Below, one piece after another: positions 1-32,000 of a stretch of 32,000 nt of DNA. Made by a program: the position numbers and the translations under genes. The notes beneath the pieces are model-generated. The model was given only the letters and a program-made list of their open reading frames with translations. It made no database searches and was not told the DNA's origin. How positions within the stretch are numbered: position 1 is the first letter of the stretch; every line of letters begins with the position of its first letter. The stretch covers positions 30,001 to 62,000 of the forward strand of contig NZ_LT606950.1 in the NCBI RefSeq assembly GCF_900095195.1, given 5' to 3'. The DNA comes from Polynucleobacter necessarius (GTDB lineage: Bacteria > Pseudomonadota > Gammaproteobacteria > Burkholderiales > Burkholderiaceae).

Positions 1-2687
<2,687 letters not shown>

Positions 2688-2725
2688 TTAATACTGATAG
2701 ACATAAAAGATACCAAGGATTCGAT

Positions 2726-4189
2726 ATGGGTAAGGTCACTGGATTTATGGAGTTTGAGCGCGTCGATGAGACATACGAAGCGCCCACTAAACGTCTCCAC
2801 CATTACAAAGAGTTTGTTGCTGCATTAACGGATGAAGAAGCAAAAGTTCAGGGAGCGCGTTGCATGGACTGTGGCATTCCGTTTTGTAATAACGGCTGCC
2901 CAGTGAACAATATCATTCCCGACTTCAATGACTTGGTATTTCATAGTGACTGGAAAAATGCACTGGATGTATTGCAGTCAACCAATAACTTCCCGGAATT
3001 TACTGGCCGCATTTGTCCAGCGCCTTGCGAGGCCGCATGTACATTGGGCATCAATCGTGCGCCAGTGGGTATTAAATCCATTGAGCACGCCATCATTGAT
3101 AAAGGCTGGGAAAGTGGTTGGGTAAAACCACAGCCATCGAAAACAAAACCCGGCAAAAAAGTGGCAATCGTTGGCGGTGGGCCTGCAGGCATGGCTGCTG
3201 CTCAGCAATTGGCGCGCGTTGGTCATGATGTAACTGTTTTTGAAAAGAATGATCGTATTGGCGGTTTACTCCGTTACGGCATCCCCGACTTCAAAATGGA
3301 GAAATGGCTTATCGATCGTCGCGTAGAGCAAATGCAAGCCGAAGGCGTGAAATTTGAAACCGGTGTTTTTGTTGGTAAGGAAGCAATAGGCGCTGCGGTC
3401 AAAAATTACTCGACCAAGACGGTTTCCCCAGATCAGCTCATGAAAGATTTTGACGCAGTGGTGATCACTGGTGGCGCTGAGCAGCCTCGTGATCTTCCTG
3501 TTCCGGGCCGTGAGCTTGATGGCGTTCATTTCGCATTGGAGTTTTTGATTCCACAAAACAAAGAAAACGCTGGCGACTTTAAGAATGAAATTCGGGCAAC
3601 GGACAAAAATGTCGTAGTGATTGGTGGTGGTGATACAGGCTCTGATTGTGTGGGCACTTCAAATCGCCATGGCGCAACGAAGATTACCCAATTTGAATTA
3701 TTGCCACAGCCGCCAGAAGTTGAAAATAAGCCATTGGTATGGCCGTACTGGCCAACGAAGCTTCGCACTTCTTCTTCTCATGAAGAGGGTTGCGATCGCG
3801 ATTGGTCGGTTGGTACGAAGCGTTTTGAAGGTAAAAACGGCAAAGTTGAAAAACTAATTGGCGTTCGCCTGGAATGGAAAGACGGAAAAATGTCAGAAGT
3901 TCCAAATTCTGAATTTGAGATCAAGGCCGATTTGGTGCTTTTAGCAATGGGCTTTGTTTCACCAGTTCAGCAAGTTCTGAATGCATTTGGTGTTGAAAAG
4001 GACGCTCGTGGTAACGCTAAAGCAACCGTAGAGGGTCAAAATGCCTATCAAACGAATGTTCCGAAAGCATTTGCTGCGGGAGATATGCGTCGTGGGCAAT
4101 CCTTGGTAGTTTGGGCAATACGTGAAGGTCGTCAATGCGCCCAGGCAGTAGACCAATATTTGATGGGATCATCCGTTTTGCCCCGATAA
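2726..4189 (+). CDS. gltD: Glutamate synthase small (NADPH) subunit
   Basis: Fe-S cysteine clusters CMDCGIPFC and CPAPCEAAC. Dinucleotide folds [14 protein letters not shown] and [13 protein letters not shown]. Starts 38 nt after gltB. Confidence 0.95.
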
Positions 4190-8090: not shown

Positions 8091-8843
8091 GTGCATTCTG
8101 CGATATCAATAAAACATGCATCAAAGCATTACGGAGCTCTTCAGGCTCTTGACGATGTTTCTTTGGAGATTGAGTCGGGAGAATTTTTTGGGCTTTTGGG
8201 CCCCAATGGCGCTGGAAAGTCTACGCTCATTTCGATCTTGGCGGGCTTAGTAAGGGCGGATAAAGGGCAGGCGGCCATTCTTGGGGCAGATGTGCAAAGC
8301 GCTTTCCGTGAGGCCCGCCGCATGCTTGGTGTAGTTCCTCAAGAATTGGTTTTTGATCCATTCTTTACAGTACGTGAAACTTTGCGCTTTCAGTCAGGTT
8401 ACTTTGGCATTCGTAAGAACGATGCATGGATCGATGAGATCATGGCGAATTTGGATCTGACTGGTAAAGCCGATAGCAATATGCGCGCGTTATCTGGTGG
8501 AATGAAGCGCCGAGTCTTGGTTGCGCAAGCATTAGTACATCGTCCCCCTGTGATTATTCTGGATGAGCCAACTGCTGGCGTAGATGTGGAGTTGCGTCAG
8601 TCTTTGTGGCAATTCATCAGTCGCCTAAACCAAGATGGGCATACGATCGTATTGACCACGCACTACTTGGAAGAAGCGGAAGCTTTATGCCAACGAATTG
8701 CAATGCTGAAACAAGGCAAAATTGTTGCGCTCGATATCATCGCCAATTTATTAACGCGCTACGGCTCGAATAAAAAAAATGGTGATGGCAGAATGGACCT
8801 CGAAGATGTTTTTGTGAACATCATGTCGGGGAGCGCATTGTGA
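8091..8843 (+). CDS. ABC-2 type exporter ATP-binding protein
   Basis: GTG start. Walker A GPNGAGKST, signature LSGGMKRRVLVAQA, Walker B VIILDEPT, terminal LEDVFV motif. 4-nt GTGA overlap with the permease gene. Confidence 0.85.
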   Translation: MHSAISIKHASKHYGALQALDDVSLEIESGEFFGLLGPNGAGKSTLISILAGLVRADKGQAAILGADVQSAFREARRMLGVVPQELVFDPFFTVRETLRFQSGYFGIRKNDAWIDEIMANLDLTGKADSNMRALSGGMKRRVLVAQALVHRPPVIILDEPTAGVDVELRQSLWQFISRLNQDGHTIVLTTHYLEEAEALCQRIAMLKQGKIVALDIIANLLTRYGSNKKNGDGRMDLEDVFVNIMSGSAL

Positions 8844-9640
8844 TTAATCGTTTACAAAGAGTGCTAAATAAGCCGGCGCTTGAATACGGCAGCGGTTTCC
8901 CGACACTTCTCTTCAAAGAAGTAAAGCGCTTTTATAAGGTGGCTTTCCAAACAGTTGCGGCTCCTGTCTTAACAGCTATTTTGTATTTAATGATTTTTGG
9001 CCATGTATTGGATGGTAAAGAGGTTTACGGTCGCCTGAGCTACACAGCATTCTTAATTCCTGGCCTGGTGATGATGAGTGTTTTGCAAAATGCGTTTGCA
9101 AATACCTCATCTTCATTGATTCAATCGAAGATTACTGGCAATCTTGTCTTTATATTACTTGCGCCACTAAGTCACTTTGAGTTTTATGCGGCATATATTT
9201 TGGCGGCGGTATTCCGAGGGATTGTCGTGGGCTTCGGCGTATTTATCATCACAATCTGGTTTGGTATGCCTACGTTGGAATACCCGATTTGGATTTTGGT
9301 ATTTGCGTTCTTGGGGGCGGCAATATTGGGAAGCTTGGGCTTGATTGCCGGCATCATGGCAGATAAGTTTGATCAGCTTGCGGCGTTTCAAAATTTCATC
9401 ATCATGCCTGCGACCATGCTGTCCGGTGTTTTTTATTCCATTCATTCGCTACCGCCAGCCTGGCAAGTCGTGCCCCATTTCAACCCAATTTTTTACATGA
9501 TCGATGGTTTTCGCTTTGGCTTTTTTGGAGTGTCCGATGTTGCCCCATGGAGCAGCCTAGCAATCGTGTTGTGTTTCTTTATTGTCGTCTCGGCTATTGC
9601 TTTGCGTCTATTGCAAAAGGGCTACAAGCTGCGCCATTAA
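8840..9640 (+). CDS. ABC-2 type exporter permease
   Basis: About six hydrophobic segments, YadH/ABC-2-like. Translationally coupled to the upstream ATPase. Confidence 0.8.
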   Translation: MINRLQRVLNKPALEYGSGFPTLLFKEVKRFYKVAFQTVAAPVLTAILYLMIFGHVLDGKEVYGRLSYTAFLIPGLVMMSVLQNAFANTSSSLIQSKITGNLVFILLAPLSHFEFYAAYILAAVFRGIVVGFGVFIITIWFGMPTLEYPIWILVFAFLGAAILGSLGLIAGIMADKFDQLAAFQNFIIMPATMLSGVFYSIHSLPPAWQVVPHFNPIFYMIDGFRFGFFGVSDVAPWSSLAIVLCFFIVVSAIALRLLQKGYKLRH

Positions 9641-9685
9641 TCATTAAATTTTAGAAATCAAATTCGTGCGTTTTTGGAGAGAAGG

Positions 9686-9934
9686 ATGTTGCCAACCCCT
9701 GAGCAAATTGAGGGCTATATTAAGCAAGGAATTCAATGCACCCATATCCAAGTCGAGGGTGATGGACAACATTTTTTTGCCACCATTGTTAGTCCAGAGT
9801 TTGAGGGCAAGCGTTTAGTGCAACGGCATCAGTTGGTTTATGGCGCAATGGGTGATCGCATGAAGGCTGAAGTACATGCCCTATCAATCAAAGCATTTAC
9901 CCCCGAAGAGTTTGCACAAAGTTCTGCACAATAA
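9686..9934 (+). CDS. ibaG: BolA-family protein (IbaG/YrbA-like)
   Basis: Small BolA-like sequence (HFFATIVSPEFEGKRLVQRHQLVY). The ATG at 9686 is preceded by GGAGAGAAGG. Sits between the mla cluster and murA, as in E. coli. Confidence 0.7.
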   Translation: MLPTPEQIEGYIKQGIQCTHIQVEGDGQHFFATIVSPEFEGKRLVQRHQLVYGAMGDRMKAEVHALSIKAFTPEEFAQSSAQ

Positions 9935-9976: not shown

Positions 9977-11251
9977 ATGGATAAATTACGAATGGTTGGC
10001 GGAACCCCCTTAAAAGGTGAGGTCAAAATTGCTGGTGCTAAAAATGCCGCATTACCCATTCTGTGTGCATGTTTGTTGACGGATGAGCCGGTGGTTTTGC
10101 GTAATCTTCCAGACTTACAAGATGTGCGAACGATGCTCAAACTTTTGCAAGAAATTGGTGTCGCTGTGAGCTTCCCCAATCCAAGCGATCGCAATCATGT
10201 TGTACTGAATGCAGCAGTCATTAAGAGCTCAGAGGCAACCTATGAAATGGTTAAAACGATGCGCGCCTCGATTTTGGTTCTTGGCCCATTGCTTGCCAGA
10301 ATGCATAGCGCGAAGGTTTCTTTGCCAGGCGGTTGCGCGATCGGTGCCCGTCCTGTAGACCAGCACATAAAAGGCTTAAAAGCCATGGGCGCGAGCACCA
10401 AGATTAAGAGTGGCTATATTCAGGCTGAAACCAAGCCGCTATCGGAGCGCCTCAAAGGCGCCTCTATTCTGACGGACATGATTACAGTCACCGGTACAGA
10501 AAATTTACTGATGGCTGCAACACTGGCTTCTGGTACTACCGTTCTAGAAAATGCTGCGCGCGAGCCAGAGGTGGGTGACCTAGCTGAATTGCTAGTCAAA
10601 ATGGGCGCGAATATTTCTGGAGTTGGCACCGATCGTCTAGTAATTGAAGGTGTTGAAAAATTGCATGGTGCAGAACATTCTGTAATTCCGGATCGCATCG
10701 AGGCAGGTACTTTCCTTTGCGCAGTCGCTGCGGTTGGTGGGGGGGTGTTGGTCAAAGATTGTCGTCCAGATACTTTAGATGCGGTGATGGTGAAGCTGAG
10801 GGAGGCGGGGCTGCAAATGGAGGTAGGTCCCGATTGGATCAAGGCATCAATGCAGGGCCGCCCTAAAGCAGTGAGTTTTCGAACGTCCGAGTACCCTGCG
10901 TTTCCAACGGATATGCAGGCACAACTCATGGCTGTGAATGCCGTTGCTAGCGGCAGCTCCATGATCACAGAAACGATTTTTGAGAATCGCTTTATGCATG
11001 TTCAAGAGCTAAATCGTCTTGGAGCGGATATTGCAATTGAGGGTAATACGGCGATTTCACAGGGTGTAGATAAACTTTCGGGCGCGATCGTGATGGCTGC
11101 CGACCTGCGTGCTTCTGCCAGTTTGGTTATTGCTGGTTTGGCTGCTCAAGGCGAAACCCAGGTGGACCGGATTTACCATTTAGATCGTGGTTATGACCGC
11201 ATGGAACAAAAGCTAACCCTTCTGGGCGCCAATATTGAACGCGTGAAGTAA
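9977..11251 (+). CDS. murA: UDP-N-acetylglucosamine 1-carboxyvinyltransferase
   Basis: Full-length 424 aa. N-terminus [27 protein letters not shown]. Active-site loop [15 protein letters not shown]. Confidence 0.95.
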
Positions 11252-11940: not shown

Positions 11941-13281
11941 ATGTCTTCATCGATTGAGGTTAAGCGCCTCAATAGCCAGGATTTAGGTTTCAAGGAAACA
12001 CTGCTATCCAGCCTTTCATTGCCGACGGCTGATGATGTGGCCATCGATACCGCTGTGGTAAAAATTTTGTCAGCGGTGAAGGAGCAAGGAGACTCCTCGG
12101 TCCTCGCTTATACAAAGCAATTTGATCGGCTAAATGTTTCCAGCGTTTCGGATTTAGAAATTCCCCGTCAGGATCTAGAGTGCACCTATAGCGCCTTAGC
12201 GAACGAGCAGAAAAATGCGCTCGATATTGCTGCGAAACGAGTACGCGCATATCACGAGCGACAAAAGAGCGAAACGGGATGTCACTCTTGGGAATATGAA
12301 GAGGCCGATGGAACAAGATTGGGTCAGAAAGTGACGCCGTTGGATCGCGTGGGCATTTATGTGCCCGGTGGAAAAGCAGCTTACCCATCCTCGGTTTTGA
12401 TGAATGCAATTCCTGCCAAGGTTGCTGGTGTTGCTGAGGTCATCATGGTGGTGCCAACCCCGGATGGGGCGCGCAACTCTTTGGTATTGGCTGCAGCATA
12501 TTTGGCTGGTGTTGATCGCGTCTTTACGATTGGCGGTGCTCAGGCAGTGGCTGCCTTAGCCTATGGTACGAACACGATTCCTGCGGTGGACAAGATAGTT
12601 GGTCCAGGCAATGCTTACGTTGCTGCAGCCAAGCGAAGAGTATTCGGTACGGTGGGCATCGATATGATCGCCGGCCCATCTGAGATTTTGATCTTATGTG
12701 ATGGTTCTAGCAATCCTGCTTGGATTGCAATGGATTTGTTTTCTCAAGCCGAGCATGATGAACAAGCCCAATCGATTTTGCTATGTCCCGATGCTGGATT
12801 CATAGCGCAAGTTCAAGAAAGTATTGATCGTTTGCTCCCTGAGATGCCGCGGGCAAACGTGATTGAGACTTCATTAACGAAGCGAGCGTTACTCATTCAA
12901 GTCCAGGATATGAATGAAGCTTGTGACATTGCTAATGCGATTGCCGCAGAGCATTTGGAAATTTGTGCTGAAGATCCGCGGAAATGGGCTGAGAAGATTC
13001 GCCATGCAGGTGCTATTTTTATGGGAAATTACACCAGCGAATCCCTCGGCGATTATTGTGCTGGACCCAATCACGTCTTACCTACGGCCCGAACAGCGCG
13101 CTTTTCGTCGCCATTGGGCGTCTACGATTTTATTAAGCGCTCTAGCATGATTGAGGTGAGTGAGGCTGGCGCACAAACCTTGGGTAGGGCGGCGAGCACC
13201 CTAGCGCATGGCGAGGGTTTGCAAGCGCATGCTCGTGCTGCTGAAATGCGTGTATCTAAGTCATATGGGAACTATGACTAG
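11941..13281 (+). CDS. hisD: Histidinol dehydrogenase
   Basis: 446 aa with blocks [33 protein letters not shown] and [13 protein letters not shown]. Confidence 0.95.
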
Positions 13282-13890
13282 AAAAAAACTTTTGATTGAA
13301 GGTTTGAGGGGAATAAACCATTCATATGCCCTTGTAAATCAAAATCAATTATTGCAATTAAGAAACAGTCATTTCGAATCATTTCATAATGATCTGCCTT
13401 TTTATAATCACAAATGGAGTAAAGCATTAAATGGATCGGGGTTTGACGAGTCTAGCTCACAACAGTTAAGCAATATTCCATCACTAGACAATAATCTAAT
13501 TCAGTCAGATATTACTTATAGAATCAGTTTCCCATATCGCTTCTATAGCGGTAATACAAAAAGGTTATTCGTATACGGCACATTTATCAAAATGATTTGA
13601 AGAGCGGCATTTCAAATGCACGTTTGAAAAACATCACTCCTTCATATTGGTCCAAGGAAAGCTTTTTACGTGCTGGATTTCTTGATGAGCAAGTGGTTGT
13701 AGTTCCGCATGAAGTGTCTGATGTGTTTTGGCCTATATCAAGCGATCGAAGGTTACATTTTTAGAAATGCTTTAAGGTGTCAAGATGATGATTTTTTACT
13801 TTTATCAATGGCGCCATGATGGGCAATAAAGGCATTGATAAATTATTGACATCATATGCTTTTGAAAGAAAAATATCCCCATATAAGATT
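13274..13890 (+). pseudogene. Remnant of a glycosyltransferase (GT4/group-1-like), N-terminal half only, at least 3 frame breaks
   Basis: Frame 1 reads [29 protein letters not shown]...DITYRISFPYRF...RLFVYGT (stop at 13600). A second frame reads NITPSYWSKESFLRAGFLDEQVVVVPHEVSDVFWP. A third reads [18 protein letters not shown]. The family assignment comes from my recall of the motif order, not from a search. The segment is visibly AT-rich. Confidence 0.5.
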
Positions 13891-14227
13891 GGTTTTGTAA
13901 TCAATTCCGAAAAGCTTGCAGTAAACCGGATAAAAACTGTAAGTAATGTCTGGAAAATGGACGGGCTTACTTTGTTTTAAAAGGCCTGCAAAAACATGCG
14001 CCAGTACTTCATCAGAGCCATTGCCCAAAAACACTTGATTTGAATGAAGGCCATGTAATTTGGCAATGGCGTTTTTTAAGTCTGCGCCTTGATTGCTGCT
14101 AGCGCTTTAGGCAACGGTCCGTAAGGGCTTTCATTGGTGTTGAGCTTCACCAACCGATTCATTTTCGGCTGTTCCCCGGTATGTAGGGTGTCAAAGTTTC
14201 AACAACAGGGCTCCAAAAACGGCTCAT
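13852..14227 (-). pseudogene. hisC: Histidinol-phosphate aminotransferase remnant (N-terminal third), inverted relative to the his operon
   Basis: The minus strand from ATG 14227 reads [18 protein letters not shown] / [31 protein letters not shown] / [64 protein letters not shown]. There are two frame breaks. HisC-like sequence fades near 13890. Confidence 0.8.
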
Positions 14228-14342
14228 TAATGTACTCAGTTTAAAAATCAGAGGGAATTAACAATAAGTTCTGCATTTAAATATCTTCTAGGAATGATAT
14301 TATGAAGTTTCATTTAACACTTCGCCTCGCGGCGTTAGAAGC

Positions 14343-14930
14343 ATGCGGCAAGCCGACGTCACCCGAAATACTTCGGAAACCAAAATTCAGATTTCCATCA
14401 ATTTAGATGGTGCCGGTAAGGCTGAGCTAGCCTCAGGCGTTCCTTTCCTAGACCACATGTTGGACCAAATTGCCCGTCACGGGATGATTGATCTCAAGGT
14501 TGTCGCGCAGGGCGATACCCACATTGATGATCATCACACGGTTGAGGACGTTGGCATTACCTTGGGGCAGGCATTTGCAAAGGCGGTAGGGGATAAAGCA
14601 GGGATCACCCGTTGTGGGCATTCTTATGTCCCATTGGATGAAACCCTCTCTCGCGTGGTCGTGGATTTCTCTGGTCGTCCTGGCCTTGAATTTAATGTGC
14701 CATTTACTCGCGCTCGAGTAGGTAATTTCGATGTGGATCTCAGTATTGAGTTCTTCCGTGGTTTTGTAAACCATGCGGGAGTGACTTTGCATATTGATAA
14801 TTTGCGCGGGATCAATGCGCACCATCAGATTGAGACGGTTTTCAAAGCCTTTGGACGGGCTTTACGTATGGCCTTGTCTGTTGATCCTCGTGCATCGGGT
14901 ACCGTTCCATCAACTAAAGGCAGTCTTTAA
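14343..14930 (+). CDS. hisB: Imidazoleglycerol-phosphate dehydratase
   Basis: 195 aa, monofunctional IGPD. Metal-binding blocks [12 protein letters not shown] and [17 protein letters not shown]. Confidence 0.95.
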
Positions 14931-14978
14931 TCTTCATTTTTTAGTTGCCGGTTTGATAACAGCAAAGATAGGCTAATT

Positions 14979-15635
14979 TTGGCGCAGACTATTGCGATCG
15001 TCGATTACGGAATGGGCAATCTTCGTTCTGTGTATCAAGCGCTTCATCATGTGGCGCCTAGTGACAAGGTATTAATTGCGCATCAGCCGGAGGAAATACG
15101 ATCAGCCGACCGTGTAGTCTTGCCTGGTCAAGGGGCGATGCCAGATTGCATGAAACATCTAGAGGAGTCGGGGCTTTTAGAATCCTTGTTGGAGACCTCT
15201 AAAAATAAGCCTTTACTGGGCGTTTGTGTGGGCGAGCAAATGCTATTTGATAAAAGTGCTGAAGTGCGGACAAATGAAGTTTGGACCCCGTGTTTAGGGC
15301 TGATATCGGGTGAAGTACGGCGCTTTGATTTGGCTGGTACAAAACAAGCTGATGGATCCGCATACAAAGTGCCTCATATGGGCTGGAATCAAGTCCGCCA
15401 AGATCGATCTCATCCGATTTGGGATGGAATCCCTGATCTGACAAGTTTTTATTTTGTGCACAGTTACTTTGTGTCTCCATGTCATAACGAAGATACTGTA
15501 GGATCTACAGAATATGGAGCATGGTTTACTTCTGCGGTGGCAAAGGATAATATTTTTGCAACACAGTTTCATCCTGAAAAAAGCACAGAATATGGATTGA
15601 AGCTTTATCAAAATTTTGTTTCTTGGCGACCTTAA
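14979..15635 (+). CDS. hisH: Imidazole glycerol phosphate synthase, glutaminase subunit
   Basis: TTG start. [14 protein letters not shown], nucleophile Cys in [11 protein letters not shown], and ATQFHPEKS. Confidence 0.9.
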
Positions 15636-15655
15636 TCAATTTTTAACGTTTTACT

Positions 15656-16417
15656 ATGCTGCTTATTCCCGCAATAGATCTGAAAGACGGCCACTGTGTT
15701 CGACTAGAGCAAGGTGATATGGATAAGGCTACGGTGTTCTCTGAGGATCCAGGCGCAATGGCTACTCACTGGATTAGTAAAGATGCACGCCGTTTGCATT
15801 TAGTTGATCTCAATGGTGCTTTTGCTGGAAAATTGAAGAACGAGTCAGCCATTAAATCGATTCTGAAGGCGGTTGGTGATGAGATCCCGGTTCAGTTGGG
15901 TGGCGGTATTCGTGATCTTGAAACAATTGAGCGTTTATTGGATGACGGTATCAGTACCGTCATTATTGGTACTGCTGCGGTTAAGAATCCCGGTTTTGTA
16001 CAAGATGCTTGCACCGCGTTTCCTGGCCATGTAATGGTGGGTCTAGATGCACGTGATGGCAAAGTGGCAACCGATGGCTGGAGCAAGAACACGGGACATG
16101 AAGTGATTGATCTCGCCAAGAAGTTTGAAGACTGGGGCGTTGAAGCGATTATCTACACAGATATTGGTCGGGACGGCATGCTCAAGGGCGTCAATGTTGA
16201 TGCCACCATTAAATTGGCGCAAGCTATTCGTATTCCAGTCATTGCCAGTGGCGGCTTATCCAGCAATAAAGATATTGATGCACTCTGTCAGGCTGAAGAG
16301 GATGGCGTCATGGGGGTGATTGCTGGCCGGTCAATATATTCCGGCGATCTTGATTTAGCGGTGGCCCAAAAATATGCCGATGAGTTAACGCTTAAATATA
16401 AAAAGAAACTCATCTAG
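15656..16417 (+). CDS. hisA: ProFAR isomerase
   Basis: [18 protein letters not shown]-terminus and the GGGIRD and ASGGLS phosphate-binding blocks. Confidence 0.95.
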
Positions 16418-17175
16418 TGTTAACCAAAAGAATTATTCCGTGCTTGGATGTGACGGCGGGACGAGTTGTTAAAGGGGTGAACTTTGTGGGTTTGCGTGAT
16501 GCTGGTGATCCTGTCGAAATCGCCAAGCGTTATGACACTCAGGGTGCAGACGAACTCACATTCTTAGATATCACCGCCACTTCAGATGGCCGTGATTTAA
16601 TCTTGCACATCATTGAAGATGTGGCATCGCAAGTATTTATTCCATTAACAGTCGGAGGGGGCGTGCGTGCAGTCGCTGATGTGCGTCGCTTGCTGAATGC
16701 CGGCGCGGATAAAGTGAGCATGAATTCTTCGGCAGTGGCTAATCCTGATTTAGTCTCCGATGCAGCTGCTTACTATGGATCTCAATGCATTGTGGTAGCT
16801 ATTGATGCCAAGCGGACTGAGTCTGGAAACTGGGAAGTATTTACTCATGGCGGTAGAACAGCTACGGGTATTGATGTTGTTGAGTGGGCGACTGAGGTAG
16901 CTAAACGGGGTGCAGGCGAAATTTTATTAACGAGCATGAACCGCGATGGCAGTAAGGATGGTTTTGATTTAGCACCTACTGCGGCAGTAAGTGATGCGGT
17001 TTCGGTTCCAGTCATCGCTTCTGGTGGCGTGGGCAATTTACAGCACCTGGTTGACGGCATTACCAAGGGTCATGCTGATGCGGTTCTAGCTGCAAGTATC
17101 TTTCACTATGGTGAATTTTCCGTTGGGCAAGCAAAAGAATATATGGCTGCTCAGGGAGTCCCGGTTCGCATTTAG
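16417..17175 (+). CDS. hisF: Imidazole glycerol phosphate synthase, cyclase subunit
   Basis: GTG start overlapping the hisA stop by 1 nt. [27 protein letters not shown] and IASGGVG blocks. Confidence 0.95.
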
Positions 17176-17216
17176 TGCAATTTCAGGATTTATCACTTTC
17201 ACGGTAAAGTTCAGGT

Positions 17217-17591
17217 ATGAACAAGCCCATGAGCACTTTCACTCCGATTGAGTCTATTCAAGCCGGTTCTTGGTTAGATGCGGTTTCTTGGAACGAACAA
17301 GGTCTCGTGCCCGTCATCGCGCAAGAGTTCGGCAGTAATGACATTTTGATGATGGCTTGGATGAATCGAGATGCGCTCATGGCAACGCTGCGTTTAGGTG
17401 AGGCGGTTTATTGGACCCGTTCACGTCAAAAGCTATGGCACAAGGGCGAAGAGTCTGGCCACACCCAAAAGGTAAAAGAAATTCGTTTAGATTGTGACGG
17501 AGATACGATCTTGTTGATCGTTGAACAAAAAGATGGGATCGCTTGTCATACGGGTGAGCACAGCTGTTTTTTTTCAGCAGTGGGATTCTAG
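17217..17591 (+). CDS. hisI: Phosphoribosyl-AMP cyclohydrolase (C-terminal tail altered by a T8-run frameshift)
   Basis: [19 protein letters not shown] and [29 protein letters not shown]. After the T8 run (17567-17574) the reading frame ends quickly (SAVGF*). The -1 frame reads [18 protein letters not shown] to 17631, which resembles normal HisI tails. Confidence 0.9.
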
Positions 17592-17649
17592 TCAATTAAC
17601 TTGGGTCAATGAGTCAACCCCCAAGAAATAAAAGACATAAAATGAAATC

Positions 17650-18051
17650 ATGAGTAACCCAACAGATAAATCTTCCAATTTAGATTCCGCATTAGCTCAT
17701 CTAGCTGATGTGGTGGATCAACGTCGCGACGCATTTAAGGCTGGCAACGCTGACCCAAAAACCTCTTACACAGCATTGCTTTTCTCAAAAGGGGATGATG
17801 GCATTCTCAAAAAAATTGGAGAAGAAGCTACCGAAGCAGTAATGGCCGCAAAAGGTGTTCGGGCATCTGGTTTAGCCCCAGAGCAACAAAAGTTATTTGT
17901 GGGTGAAATGGCTGATCTTTGGTTTCATTGCTTGATTGCACTCTCCCAATTTAATTTGCGTCCTGAGGATGTGATGGCAGAGCTTGATCGTCGTCTTGGT
18001 ACTTCGGGTATTGAAGAAAAAGCAGCCAGAAAAGCCGCAAATAAAGAATAA
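17650..18051 (+). CDS. hisE: Phosphoribosyl-ATP pyrophosphohydrolase
   Basis: [28 protein letters not shown] and [13 protein letters not shown] blocks (MazG-like fold). Follows hisI. Confidence 0.85.
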
Positions 18052-22875: not shown

Positions 22876-22910
22876 AAACCCACTGTGGCAACGCAGTGGG
22901 TTTATTCTTT
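22876..22910 (+). terminator. Rho-independent terminator after the porin gene
   Basis: Perfect 10-bp stem AAACCCACTG / CAGTGGGTTT with an 8-nt loop, followed by ATTCTTT. Confidence 0.6.
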
Positions 22911-22937
22911 GTAAACCCAAAATTCCCTTTAAAGACT

Positions 22938-25357
22938 ATGAATGATGACCCGTTATTGACTCAAAACCAGAGACAATTGGCTCATGATATTTTTTTAAGA
23001 GGATTAGCAGAACATCAAGCAGGACAATTGTCGGGGGCGCAAGATTTATACCGAGAAGCATTACGCTATGACTCATTGCATGCCGAGGCAATTCACCACC
23101 TTGGAGGTGTCGAAGTCCAATACTCCAATTATGAGAATGCTCTAAAGCTCATTACTGAATCCATACAGATCAACCCCTCCAATGGGGTCGCTTTAAAGAA
23201 CCGAGGCTTGGGCCAAGCAATATTTGGATGACTTTATCGGAGCACTTAGCGACTTTTTAGAGGCTAAAAAATTTTCACCGAATGATCCAGAGTTGGATTA
23301 CAACTGTGGAAGTGCTTACTTAGGTCTGCATGAATATGAAAAAGCGCTTCAATATTTTGAGGGGCTAATTAATCGAGGGCATGTCAATGCGTTGATCTTG
23401 AATGATCAGGCAAATGCCTTCCACGAATGTGGAAAAACTCAGGACGCACTCGCATCGTATGATCAAGCGATTACTCTGGATCCGTATTATCCGGATGCTC
23501 ACTACAACAAAGCGCTACTGTTGCAATCTGAGAATCGGCTGGAAGAAGCGTGTGTTGAGCTTCAGAAAACCGTTGATATTGATCCCTGCAATAAACAGGC
23601 CCTGAATAATCTTGGAATTATCCATGAAAAAATTTATGACTTTCCAAGCGCCTTAGAGGTGCTGAAGAGGGCGGTTGAGATTGATCCAGATTATGTAGAA
23701 GCACATGCAAATTTGGGAAATATCTATTCATCATTAAAGCAAATGGATCTAGCTATCCAATGTTATGACAAGGCGATATCTTTGAAAAATGGTCTGTCAC
23801 AATTCTATAACAATCGAGCAAACGCGTTGGGTGAACTGGATGGGTTGGAAGAGGCATTGGAGGATTATGAGACCGCTATAAAGCTCAATCCCGATTATGT
23901 AGATGCTTATAGCAATAAGGCGTTAACGTTGTATGAAATGAAGAAGCCTAAAGAAGCGCTTGAAACTTACCAGTAAGCGCTTCAGCTAAAACCAAATTAT
24001 GAATATCTTTTTGGTTTGCGTATGCATACTAAGATGATTATCTGCGAATGGGAAAATTATGAGCAGGAGCTTGCAGAATTATTTGAACGAATTGATGCAG
24101 GAGAAAAAGCTACTACCCCATTTCCGTTATTGGCATTGACCGATTTGTGTGAAATACAAAAGAGAGCAACAGAGCTGTATACGGGAGATAAATATCCCTC
24201 AAGTAGCTTATTAGGCGCTATTCAGAAATCTGCGCGAAAAGGAGTAATTACTGTAGGATATTTTTTGGTGATTTTCGGTCACATGCGATTGCCATTTTGA
24301 TGGCTGGTGTATTGGAGAATCACGATAAAACTAAATTTAAGCTAATTGCATTTTCATTTTCGCCTGGATCTCGGGATCCTATAAGACAGAGGGTGGAGGA
24401 TGCCTTTGACGAATTTATCGACATTAGCAATATGAGTGATGAAGAGGTTGCGCGATTGGCCCGAGAAAAAAATATTGACGTGGCGGTGGATTTAACGGGG
24501 TATACGCACTTAAATCGAACGCTGATCTTCGCCTACCGCGCCGCTCCCATTCAAGTTAACTATCTGGGTTTCCCAGGAACAATGGGCGCTCAATATATGG
24601 ATTATTTGATTGCGGACCCAACCGTGATCCCGCAAGACAGTCAAGCGTACTACACGGAAAAAATTGCTTACCTGCCGCATTGTTATCAGGCAAACGACTC
24701 CAAGCGCGTGATTTCTGAAAAAATCTTTAGTCGCTCAGAGTTGGGCTTGCCAGAAAATGCATTTGTATTTTGCTATTTTAATAATAATTACAAGATTACG
24801 CCGGATATCTTCTCGATCTGGATGCGCATCTTGCAGGCAGTCCATGATAGTGTTTTATGGTTGATTGAGGATAACCTGGTAGCCGCCAAGAATCTGAAGG
24901 CGGAAACCCAAAAAAGAGGCGCATCGGCAGATCGCATTATTTTTGCTCCCCGTATGCAGCCTGCCGATCATTTAGCCCGTCACCGCGCTACCAATTTATC
25001 TTTAGATACGCTGCCGTATAACGCACACACAACGGCTAGTGATGCCCTTTGGGCAGGCTTGCCGGTCTTAACGCGCTTGGTACAACCTTCCCAGGAAGGG
25101 TGGCTGCAAGCCTGCTCAAAGCAGTTGGTTTGCCTGGGCTGATTACAAATTCAGCGCAGGAGTATGAGGCAATGGCGATGGATTTAGCGACCGATCCTGA
25201 AAAACTCCAAGCAATCAAGCAAAAGTTGGCGGAGCACCGCCTAACAGAACCTTTGTTTAATACCGAGAAATTTGCCAGAGATATCGAAAATCTTTATACG
25301 CAAATGTATGAGCGCTATCAGAACAATTTAGGGGTCGATAGTATTCGGGTGGTTTGA
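22938..25357 (+). pseudogene. TPR-repeat / O-GlcNAc-transferase-like (SPY family, COG3914-type) glycosyltransferase, inactivated by 3 frameshifts and 1 nonsense codon
   Basis: Four ORF-track pieces (22896-23231, 23224-23976, 24016-24300, 24297-25142, plus 25049-25357) join into one ~806-codon reading. It has N-terminal TPR units and then ...ICEWENYE..., GDFRSHAIAILMAGVLENHD, and DALWAGLPVLTRLGTTFPGRVAASLLKAVGLPGLIT. The lesions are at 23210-23212, 23974-23976 (TAA), 24261-24266 and 25079-25080. Confidence 0.8.
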
Positions 25358-29955: not shown

Positions 29956-30031
29956 GCCCCTTTAGCTCATCTGGTAGAGCAACTGATTTGTAATCAGTGG
30001 GTGGTCTGTTCGAGTCGGACAAGGGGCACCA
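29956..30031 (+). tRNA. tRNA-Thr (anticodon UGU), CCA encoded
   Basis: I folded it by hand. Acceptor GCCCCTT/AAGGGGC, D arm GCTC-ATCTGGTA-GAGC, anticodon arm ACTGA-TTTGTAA-TCAGT, 5-nt variable loop, T arm GTCTG-TTCGAGT-CGGAC, discriminator A, CCA. 76 nt in total. Confidence 0.9.
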
Positions 30032-30069: not shown

Positions 30070-31400
30070 TCAAAGATTGAGATTAATTCTCCTGGTTTCA
30101 AAGACACACAAAAAGTAAATAATTGCAGCGCTTGCCAAAAAAGAGATTTTGTACCAAAGTCCAGGCAAGCTATTGCCACAAATTTGATTTAACCAAGCCA
30201 CAATCAGGGGGCATCCCACCAACCCATCCAGCTGCGAGATTGTGTGGAAGTGTGGCAGCGCTATTCCTATTTTTTGCGGGAAATAATTCTGCAAGAAGTG
30301 CTGTTTGAGGTCCAACTGCTAGCCCTAGTGAGGGGGCAAGAAGAAACAAGATAAGTCCAATGCCAAGCAATGCACTGTTTGATGCTGAATTTAAATAAGC
30401 GTTACCCAATATCTGTAGTAGTTCGTACGCAAGCTGAATACATAGGGCCCCAAGAATAATCCCACTCAAGATTGTCGGTTTTCGGCCAATTCGATTCGAA
30501 AGCCATCTTCCTAAAACTATTAGAGGACAAAGAGCTAGGGTTGAGAAAATACTCAAATTATCTACTAAGGCAGCATTGAGTCCTACGGAAGTTTTTAAGA
30601 AGATCGCTGTATATACCTGAACGCAGAAAAACAGAATTGCACCACTTGAAGAGATGCAAAAAATAATAGAAACATTCTTTTGCGAATTTCAGGATCCTTG
30701 AAATTGTTTAGAAGTTGCGATTCATTTTTTTGCTCTTGCTTTGCGAGTTCCAAAAACACGGGAGTTTCTTCTAGTGACCGTCGCAAATACACAGCAATCA
30801 TAAGAAGGATCAGTGAAGCCCAGAATGGTACCCGCCAGCCCCAATCCTGAAACTGTGATTGCGAAAGCCATTTTTGAAGAATGGCAATTTGTAATGTAGA
30901 AGCCAATATACCCAGAGGGCCCATGAGTTGCAGGAAGCTTGTTTTAAAACCTCGATGCCGATTGCCAGCATGCTCCGTGAGGTAGATGGCACTTCCGCCG
31001 ATTTCGCCGCCGGCAGATAAGCCCTGAAGAATGCGTAAAACAACTAAAAAAATGGGTGCCCAAATACCAATTTCTGCATAAGTTGGTAAAAATCCTACGC
31101 AAACCGTTGCGAAACCCATGATGGCAATCGTGATCATGAAGACAGGTTTACGGCCAATACGATCACCCAAGGAGCCAAACAAGGCTGATCCCATGGGTTC
31201 TGACCACCATGCCAATACCAAAAGTCGCTAAGCTTGCTAATAGCTCTGCATTTGGATCGTTTGTTGGAGAAAAGAGCGGACCAAGAACTACTGCAAGCGT
31301 AGCGAATGTGAGAAAGTCATACCACTCTAAAAAAAGTCCCAAAACAAGCTGCTATGGCTACTTTTTTGTAATGACGCCCACTTGTATTTGAGTCGTTCAA
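30070..31400 (-). pseudogene. MFS transporter of the metabolite:H+ symporter (ProP/KgtP-like) type, inactivated by 4 frameshifts
   Basis: The minus-strand pieces join as MNDSNTSGRHYKKVAIAACFGTF|LEWYDFLTFATLAVVLGPLF...FGIGMVVR|PMGSALFGSLGDRIGRKP...RILQGLSAGGEIGG...MFLLFF|CISSSGAILFFCVQVYTAIFLK...LSNRIGRKP...AELFPAKNRNSA...GGMP|LIVAWLNQ...*. The breaks are at 31329-31335 (A7), ~31196-31202, 30658-30663 (A6) and 30217-30221 (G5). Confidence 0.8.
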
Positions 31401-31401
31401 T

Positions 31402-32000
31402 TTATTCAGAATCAGATGAGGATTCTATTAGAGGGGGGGATAAATTTTTGGAGGGTTTAACGCCAAGTTCTCGCACTTTTTCTGCGGCTCGAATTAAATT
31501 ACCTTTTCCAGTTTTGAGTTTATTAAAGGCATCGTGATAGCTTGTTTGTGCTTGGTCTAAGCGTTGCCCCAATTTTTCAAGATCATCTACAAAGCCAACA
31601 AACTTATCGTATAGGTTGCCGCATTGCTTCGCGATTTCAAGCGCATTACGGTTTTGGTGATCTTGCCTCCAAAGATGTGCAACAGTTCTGAGAGTTGCCA
31701 TCAGGGTACTTGGGCACACAAGCACAATATTTTTGGCTAATGCCTCTTGATATAAGTTTGGAGTAGTCTTTAAGGCCAGCAAGAAAGCAGGCTCTATTGG
31801 TATAAACATGAGGACAAAATCTACTGATCCAGCGCCATATAGTGTGCTGTAGTTTTTGCCTGAAAGCCCTTGAATATGTTGTCGCAAAGATTGAATATGG
31901 GCCGCTAATTCAAGTTCGCCAACTTTTGCATCAGAAGCTTCAGTGTGTCTTGCATACGCAGTAATAGAGACTTTACTGTCAATAACTAAGCTTCTACCCT
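31402..32000 (-). CDS. rmuC: DNA recombination protein RmuC (C-terminal part; 5' end beyond the window)
   Basis: The frame is open to the window end (SLVIDSKVSITAYARH...HIQSLRQHIQGLSGKNY...VDFVLMFIPIEPAF...VLVCPSTLMATLRTVAHLWRQ). The TTG at 31887 in the ORF track is internal. Confidence 0.85.
   Translation of the reverse strand, partial: GRSLVIDSKVSITAYARHTEASDAKVGELELAAHIQSLRQHIQGLSGKNYSTLYGAGSVDFVLMFIPIEPAFLLALKTTPNLYQEALAKNIVLVCPSTLMATLRTVAHLWRQDHQNRNALEIAKQCGNLYDKFVGFVDDLEKLGQRLDQAQTSYHDAFNKLKTGKGNLIRAAEKVRELGVKPSKNLSPPLIESSSDSE

Follow-up and report, generated by a model that had tools for sequence, protein, structure and literature searches.

The window analysed here is a 32,000-nucleotide stretch of the Polynucleobacter necessarius genome (contig NZ_LT606950.1, positions 30,001 to 62,000 of the forward strand) carrying a histidine biosynthesis operon in which the gene for histidinol-phosphate aminotransferase, hisC, has been destroyed. 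P. necessarius is an obligate endosymbiont of the ciliate Euplotes. Between the hisD stop codon at 13281 and the hisB start codon at 14343 we identified 1,061 bp without a long open reading frame (ORF), the sole long non-coding gap in the window, occupied by a truncated hisC on the minus strand and the 5′ half of a glycosyltransferase gene on the plus strand, the two fused tail-to-tail. We consider it very probable that this spacer is the non-functional debris of two convergent genes which decayed in the endosymbiont, with the HisC step now presumably covered by another aminotransferase.

Matches to NCBIfam models place murA, hisG, hisD, hisB, hisH, hisA, hisF, hisI, hisE and a HIT-family gene on the plus strand. 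This agrees with an initial annotation made from the sequence alone, which had described hisG, hisD, hisB, hisH, hisA, hisF, hisI and hisE as intact plus-strand genes and the 1.06 kb between hisD and hisB as having no intact ORF; what it observed in the sequence is confirmed, as are its coordinates. Genes at 4.4-22.8 kb around the spacer are open and colinear with those of Polynucleobacter yangtzensis (locus L001), as determined by tblastn of the L001 proteins. The window HisD is identical to WP_114661536.1 and the window HisB to WP_114661540.1, both from P. necessarius.

Two convergent pseudogenes between hisD and hisB

Six-frame translation from the ATG at 14227 on the minus strand reproduces the aminotransferase-like peptides quoted in the initial annotation. 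Using the intact L001 HisC as a tblastn query we could map HisC residues 1-18 to 14227-14174, residues 18-49 to 14177-14082 and residues 61-127 to 14091-13891, the three segments lying in three frames and showing 84-89% identity to the query (combined E 4e-49). The joined remnant peptide matches both the TIGR01141 hisC model (E 2.1e-18, profile positions 3-121) and Pfam Aminotran_1_2 (PF00155, E 1e-7) and retains the LNTNE.PYGP and GNGSDE N-terminal blocks of the HisC family. The minus-strand aminotransferase similarity proposed for 14227 to about 13890 is thus borne out by tblastn and by both profile searches, although with 66.3 bits against a TIGR01141 trusted cutoff of 276.55 the remnant falls short of a full-length HisC. 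Similarity stops at 13891 and no HisC-like sequence past residue 127 was found in the window by tblastn, in line with the earlier description of a hisC that ends near 13890 and is truncated, frameshifted and devoid of its pyridoxal phosphate (PLP)-lysine region. The L001 HisC, with solved HisC structures such as 3hdo among its matches (4.9e-66), provides the reference for what has been lost. The two genes share the hisD-hisB slot, the antiparallel orientation, the divergent spacer and a promoter-like motif; the L001 copy is complete with its TLSKS motif (residues 210-214, including lysine 213, which from knowledge of the family we take to be the PLP-binding lysine) whereas the window copy lacks residues 128-355 and is frameshifted twice.

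The remnant occupies the slot and strand of intact hisC in at least 17 related loci, and its lesions are a −1 frameshift and two deletions, of 44 bp and 1,229 bp. The first of these corresponds to the 1-nt loss already noted in the C4 run at 14174-14177 (a G-run on the coding strand), relatives having five bases at this position in a DNA alignment. What had been described as an out-of-frame gap is the 44-bp deletion at ~14079/14080, which adjoins the repeat AAGGCGCAGAC (14080-14090) and is flanked by the 11-bp direct repeats AAGGCGCA(A/G)AC.

Comparison with relatives by blastn showed homology up to 13250/13251 and again from ~13891, with no match between. We rejected the possibility that 13282-13890 is hisC decayed beyond recognition, as this segment has no HisC similarity and clear glycosyltransferase homology. 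From an ATG at 13274, overlapping the hisD stop codon, the plus strand encodes, once frameshifts are allowed for, the N-terminal half of a glycosyltransferase, confirming that the hisC remnant stands tail-to-tail with the remnant of another gene. The homologues P0003, P0004 and P0006 (E 1e-39 to 1e-59) carry PF00534/PF13692 domains, and P0003 (363 aa) is 54% identical to the remnant with an E of 3.8e-59, its residues 1-199 mapping to 13331-13897 by tblastn. The remnant corresponds to about residues 1-200 of this 363-aa homologue, the remainder having been removed by deletion; Pfam gave no match for the window remnant itself, in which the C-terminal catalytic Glycos_transf_1 domain was not found. 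It has a GC content of 34% and carries a window-specific 28-bp deletion between 13582 and 13583. The last nine codons of the window hisD (13252-13278) belong to the glycosyltransferase cassette and not to ancestral hisD. The cassette replaced the final three hisD codons (the L001 protein ends ...AAEMRLKK), and the HisD profile match is still complete.

An intact copy of the glycosyltransferase gene lies between the 3′ ends of hisD and minus-strand hisC in L083, an environmental Polynucleobacter contig from a Joint Genome Institute metagenome and the source of P0003. Because it is intact in the same slot there, the glycosyltransferase is an accessory GT4 resident of the convergent hisD/hisC spacer in some strains and no random foreign debris. 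The same copy led us to reject random junk inserted in the symbiont as its origin, and the label of a foreign partner gene given in the initial annotation has to be dropped; the gene had in addition become a pseudogene ahead of the fusion.

In Polynucleobacter this convergent spacer appears to be a preferred site for small accessory cassettes, all of them low in GC (35-38%). These include the intact GT4 glycosyltransferase cassette of L083 (94-1306), a RelE (PF06296, 5.8e-42) and HTH_3 antitoxin pair in L008 (8026-8799), and small coiled-coil/membrane ORFs in L011 (757-1443) and L012 (155-715). Within the window a 123-aa gene call, P0002 (13208-13600, plus strand), starts out of frame inside hisD and extends into the remnant of the glycosyltransferase; we take it to be, almost certainly, an artefact of gene calling on pseudogene DNA.

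A sister locus retains both pseudogenes at near full length. It is represented by two Logan contigs, L081 (16.7 kb) and L082, assembled from the separate sequencing runs SRR32119647 and SRR14234079, which differ from each other by 1 base in 2,341. L081 shows 96-98.7% nucleotide identity to the window and has the order hisD, glycosyltransferase pseudogene (2246-3313), hisC pseudogene (4436-3374, minus strand) and hisB. Like the window it has the replaced hisD C-terminus, the same glycosyltransferase cassette with a shared frameshift near 13860-13870 of the window, and a dead hisC. It differs in its near-full-length pseudogenes, in its hisC lesions and in lacking the 1,229-bp, 44-bp and 28-bp deletions of the window. 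In the L081 hisC an A-run near residue 64 has gained one base (+1), a stop interrupts the frame at about residue 163 and the normal stop codon is missing, none of these lesions being common to the window, and the L081 glycosyltransferase has 47-bp and 1-bp deletions of its own. Because the frameshift is shared, the glycosyltransferase gene was dead by the time of the common ancestor of the window and L081.

Alignment of the two loci locates the deletion that fused the pseudogenes. L081 carries the 8-bp sequence TGGTTTTG twice, 1,229 bp apart, once within the glycosyltransferase gene (2825-2832) and once within hisC (4054-4061), and relative to L081 precisely 1,229 bp are missing from the window, where a single copy of TGGTTTTG is left (Table 1). 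The hisC lesions of the window are textbook slippage and short-repeat deletions.

Table 1. Features of the hisD-hisB interval and its surroundings in the P. necessarius window
Feature	Position	Strand	Evidence
murA	9977-11251	+	NCBIfam
hisD, intact, 446 aa	11941-13281	+	TIGR00069 5.7e-160, full profile coverage
GT4-family glycosyltransferase pseudogene, 5′ half (~residues 1-200)	13274-13897	+	P0003/P0004/P0006 homology, tblastn, L081/L082 alignment
Deletion junction, sole surviving copy of the 8-bp direct repeat TGGTTTTG	13890-13897	.	Two copies in L081
hisC pseudogene remnant, residues 1-127 of 355	13891-14227	-	tblastn vs L001 HisC; TIGR01141
Divergent hisC/hisB spacer, ancestral, with promoter-like site	14228-14342	.	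Promoter scans, 12-locus alignment
hisB	14343-14930	+	NCBIfam
hisB, hisH, hisA, hisF, hisI, hisE; all open, colinear with free-living relatives	14343-18051	+	NCBIfam, tblastn of L001 proteins

Selection on the histidine genes and the missing transamination step

The non-synonymous divergence (pN) from L001 is 0.115 for the hisC pseudogene of L081 and 0.066 for the 127 codons left in the window, intact orthologues giving 0.05-0.13. Because neither pseudogene value lies above those of intact orthologues hisC was under normal constraint until recently, and its loss is, judged from these rates, recent. Very recent loss was among the options listed in the initial annotation, and it fits both the pN data and the differing lesions of the two lineages. 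Between the window and L081 the hisC part has diverged by 1.5% and the glycosyltransferase part by 3.0%, against a synonymous rate of 2.0% in neighbouring genes. Only four substitutions in the hisC remnant could be classified, three of them synonymous, and indels accumulate freely.

The eight remaining his genes differ between the window and L081 by 26 synonymous and 21 non-synonymous substitutions, giving a ratio of non-synonymous to synonymous divergence (pN/pS) of 0.25 (binomial p 2.5e-6 against neutrality). The two pseudogenes have gathered about 1.9 disruptive lesions per kb per lineage (~4 per lineage in 2.1 kb), and at this rate about 10 would be expected in the 5.5 kb of his genes if these were neutral; the window has one (Poisson p 3.5e-4) and L081 has none (Poisson p 3e-5). 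Both measures suggest that the other eight his genes are still under purifying selection.

These data bear on the possibility that the whole histidine pathway has been abandoned, the host supplying histidine, hisC having broken first and the remaining genes looking intact for lack of time. Such an outcome would suit an obligate intracellular symbiont with ongoing gene loss and a recently inactivated hisC, and a late death of hisC is conceivable, given that only one of the four substitutions in its remnant since the L081 split is non-synonymous. Near the 3′ end of hisI (~17566-17591) a window-specific +1 T (at ~17566-17574; T8 compared to T7 in L081) also shifts the frame, replacing the last 18 residues with SAVGF. 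This frameshift lies however just past the last conserved motif, HSCFF, and the enzyme may still work. The contrast in lesions between the two pseudogenes and the his genes argues further against abandonment, as does the pN/pS of the his genes, which in our comparison is no higher than that of their non-his neighbours (0.19). hisD, which would be useless without the HisC step, shows seven synonymous and five non-synonymous differences from L081 and zero disruptions. On these observations we regard abandonment of the pathway as rather unlikely, though it retains a substantial share of the probability, since hisC died recently and most of the classifiable changes in its remnant are synonymous.

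The decay of two convergent genes with the HisC step bypassed, which we prefer, can be set out as a sequence of events. The ancestral layout would have been hisG hisD > GT > < hisC followed by hisB hisH hisA hisF hisI hisE >, GT being the glycosyltransferase. In a first step a frameshift would have disabled the glycosyltransferase gene before the window and L081 lineages parted, and in a second step hisC would have acquired separate lesions in each lineage. The window lineage would then have undergone the 1-nt homopolymer loss, the 44-bp deletion between 11-bp direct repeats and the 1,229-bp deletion between 8-bp direct repeats, the last of these taking the 3′ parts of both genes and fusing their 5′ parts tail-to-tail. 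Histidinol-phosphate transamination would now be performed by another aminotransferase.

Because hisD, whose product acts after HisC, has been retained, the step is presumably still carried out by something, and bypass by another aminotransferase of the same fold family would be the simplest candidate. Enzymes of this kind, HisC paralogues and aromatic aminotransferases among them, can overlap in the substrates they accept, making them obvious candidates for such a bypass. Two structures from related bacteria, PDB 3euc ('Histidinol-phosphate aminotransferase 2') and 4r2n ('putative phenylalanine aminotransferase'), belong to the same family as the lost HisC and are candidate leads only. With the repaired HisC as query, all matches were 355-aa orthologues of ≤86% identity, none of them named P. 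necessarius, no paralogue search of the remaining genome having been made.

The locus would thus present a single-enzyme hole in a histidine pathway otherwise under selection, a gap that the initial annotation had rightly recognised, raising the question of which aminotransferase fills the step. A more far-reaching proposal is that two sister symbiont lineages each lost hisC on their own, through different lesions, with the eight other his genes, hisD among them, kept by selection and transamination supplied from outside the operon. We consider this proposal in its entirety quite improbable. If it were true, and if a host enzyme or a host-derived intermediate, and not a bacterial paralogue, filled the step, the pathway would be a young host-symbiont patchwork.

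Native orientation of hisC and expression of hisB

A HisB scan of species-representative genomes yielded 80 loci (L001-L080). In L001, from P. yangtzensis MWH-JaK3, an intact 355-aa hisC lies on the minus strand between hisD and hisB (8817-9884), and each of the 17 Polynucleobacter-clade loci recovered (L001-L013, L016, L017, L025 and L037) has an intact hisC antiparallel to hisD and hisB. Three more metagenome contigs (L086-L088), which hold the closest intact orthologues (≤86% identity), have convergent hisD and hisC as well. Because hisC is antiparallel in every Polynucleobacter-clade locus examined, this orientation is ancestral and the native state of the genus. The initial annotation had treated the inverted hisC as an anomaly, a view that these loci contradict, and the case is a caution for scans in that a gene that looks 'inverted' within its operon may simply stand in the usual arrangement for its genus.

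In Cupriavidus, Burkholderia, Paraburkholderia and relatives the slot holds a plus-strand hisC only ~28% identical to that of Polynucleobacter. The Polynucleobacter-clade hisC is ~60% identical to the hisC genes of L065 (Pseudazoarcus, minus strand) and L068 (plus strand). This pattern suggests that in the genus ancestor the operon hisC was long ago displaced by a hisC of another lineage.

Expression of the genes downstream of the debris can be considered in the same light. The plus strand of the hisC/hisB spacer carries a promoter-like site, TTTAAA-16-TGnTATTAT at 14276-14303, with an exact counterpart at 9933-9960 in L001; its sigma-70-type −35 and −10 hexamers are properly spaced and conserved in relatives. 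In an alignment of 12 loci the core AATGATATTATGA (14293-14305), covering the −10 region, is invariant, and the spacer as a whole (14228-14342) has one substitution in 115 bp between the window and L081. Since hisC is natively antiparallel, hisB would always have needed its own promoter, and since the promoter-like motif is conserved across the genus neither a new promoter nor read-through of the debris would be needed. We infer that hisBHAFIE is still expressed from an ancestral promoter in the divergent spacer. The initial annotation had held that these genes must be read through the debris or from a new promoter; with a divergent spacer that is ancestral and a motif shared with L001, that conclusion does not follow.

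The same comparisons weigh on a scenario in which a recent rearrangement inverted hisC, brought in foreign DNA and broke the operon, leaving hisB-hisE in need of a new promoter or of read-through. The antiparallel hisC and the adjoining 0.6 kb of low-GC (34%) sequence, unmatched in most relatives, are what such an event might leave behind. Intact antiparallel hisC is however universal in the Polynucleobacter clade, the promoter-like motif of the spacer is conserved, the low-GC gene is intact at the same position in L083 and other strains carry other cassettes in the hisD/hisC spacer. The scenario is refuted by this synteny comparison and we give it very little credence.

It is equally hard to believe that the junction is an artefact of assembly, a chimera or a collapse, and that the true hisC region is intact or longer. 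The 1,229-bp deletion is seen in this assembly only, but L081 and L082, independent assemblies from different runs, confirm both the hisD-glycosyltransferase-hisC-hisB arrangement and the pseudogene state. The junction falls exactly at an 8-bp direct repeat, as for a biological deletion, two further lesions lie in the remaining part of hisC and the flanks are colinear with relatives. That the remnant DNA has taken on a new role as a small ORF, an antisense RNA or a regulatory element of hisB, a notion to which promoter-like hexamers within the debris (e.g. 13846-13874) and the P0002 gene call might lend themselves, is most improbable, as promoter-like matches number 6 against a shuffled expectation of 3.6 ± 2.3 (not significant), Rfam finds no family in the region, and the debris, whose divergence from L081 is no lower than the synonymous rate and in which indels accumulate without restraint, behaves like neutral DNA.

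A number of points count against the decay of two convergent genes with a bypassed HisC step and should be set beside it. The 1,229-bp deletion would be specific to the window by comparison of assemblies and not from reads, and it is a conserved motif that suggests promoter function. The L081/L082 lineage may be either symbiont or free-living. The signal of selection on the his genes could in part predate the loss of hisC, given the synonymous bias of the few remnant substitutions, and the 3′-terminal frameshift in hisI could be the first sign of decay of the whole pathway. The sequence of this genome covered is the 32-kb window, and the bypass aminotransferase is a putative one.

Genome erosion in P. 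necessarius

Further fragmented genes are found towards the right-hand side of the window. At 22896-25142 on the plus strand four consecutive ORFs of 111, 250, 94 and 281 aa encode tetratricopeptide (TPR) repeats followed by a Glyco_transf_41 domain (4.5e-61, profile positions 356-491), and have the appearance of a single large TPR/GT41 gene interrupted by frameshifts, hence of another pseudogene. Two adjoining minus-strand ORFs at 30170-31221 (208 and 128 aa) match positions 60-217 and 305-390 of Sugar_tr/MFS_1 and are, on these matches, apparently a fragmented MFS transporter gene without its N-terminus. The minus-strand segment 31402-31887 matches only the C-terminal half of the RmuC profile (150-290 of 291) and starts directly downstream of an in-frame stop; it may be an rmuC that is truncated or frameshifted, the window ending at 32000 with the upstream part beyond view. 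The window's only RNA-family match is a transfer RNA gene at 29956-30028 on the plus strand (Rfam RF00005, 62.4 bits). The fragmented genes fit an eroding genome.

In PMC5632650, P. necessarius is described as a recent symbiont still in an intensive phase of pseudogene formation, and it serves as the genus's published example of pseudogene formation and deletional decay (PMC5632650; Boscaro et al. 2013, 2017, cited there and in PMC9837558). The hisC finding is to be expected because its source is a known pseudogene-rich endosymbiont, and the event is ordinary reductive evolution of an already known kind. By itself it matters little, being one more pseudogene in a pseudogene-rich symbiont that annotation pipelines would flag.

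The details worked out here are local ones, namely the tail-to-tail fusion of two convergent pseudogenes and the independent hisC lesions in two sister lineages. The locus offers a clean example of genome shrinkage in three stages, with both genes intact, both dead yet full length, and finally both fused by a deletion between 8-bp repeats. The apparent independent loss of hisC in two sister lineages amid continued selection on the other his genes remains as a mildly interesting residue. Compared to the decay seen in recently host-restricted symbionts, the window has the same homopolymer frameshifts, the same short-repeat deletions and several fragmented genes within 32 kb of an otherwise colinear genome, and we find no difference in kind between the two.

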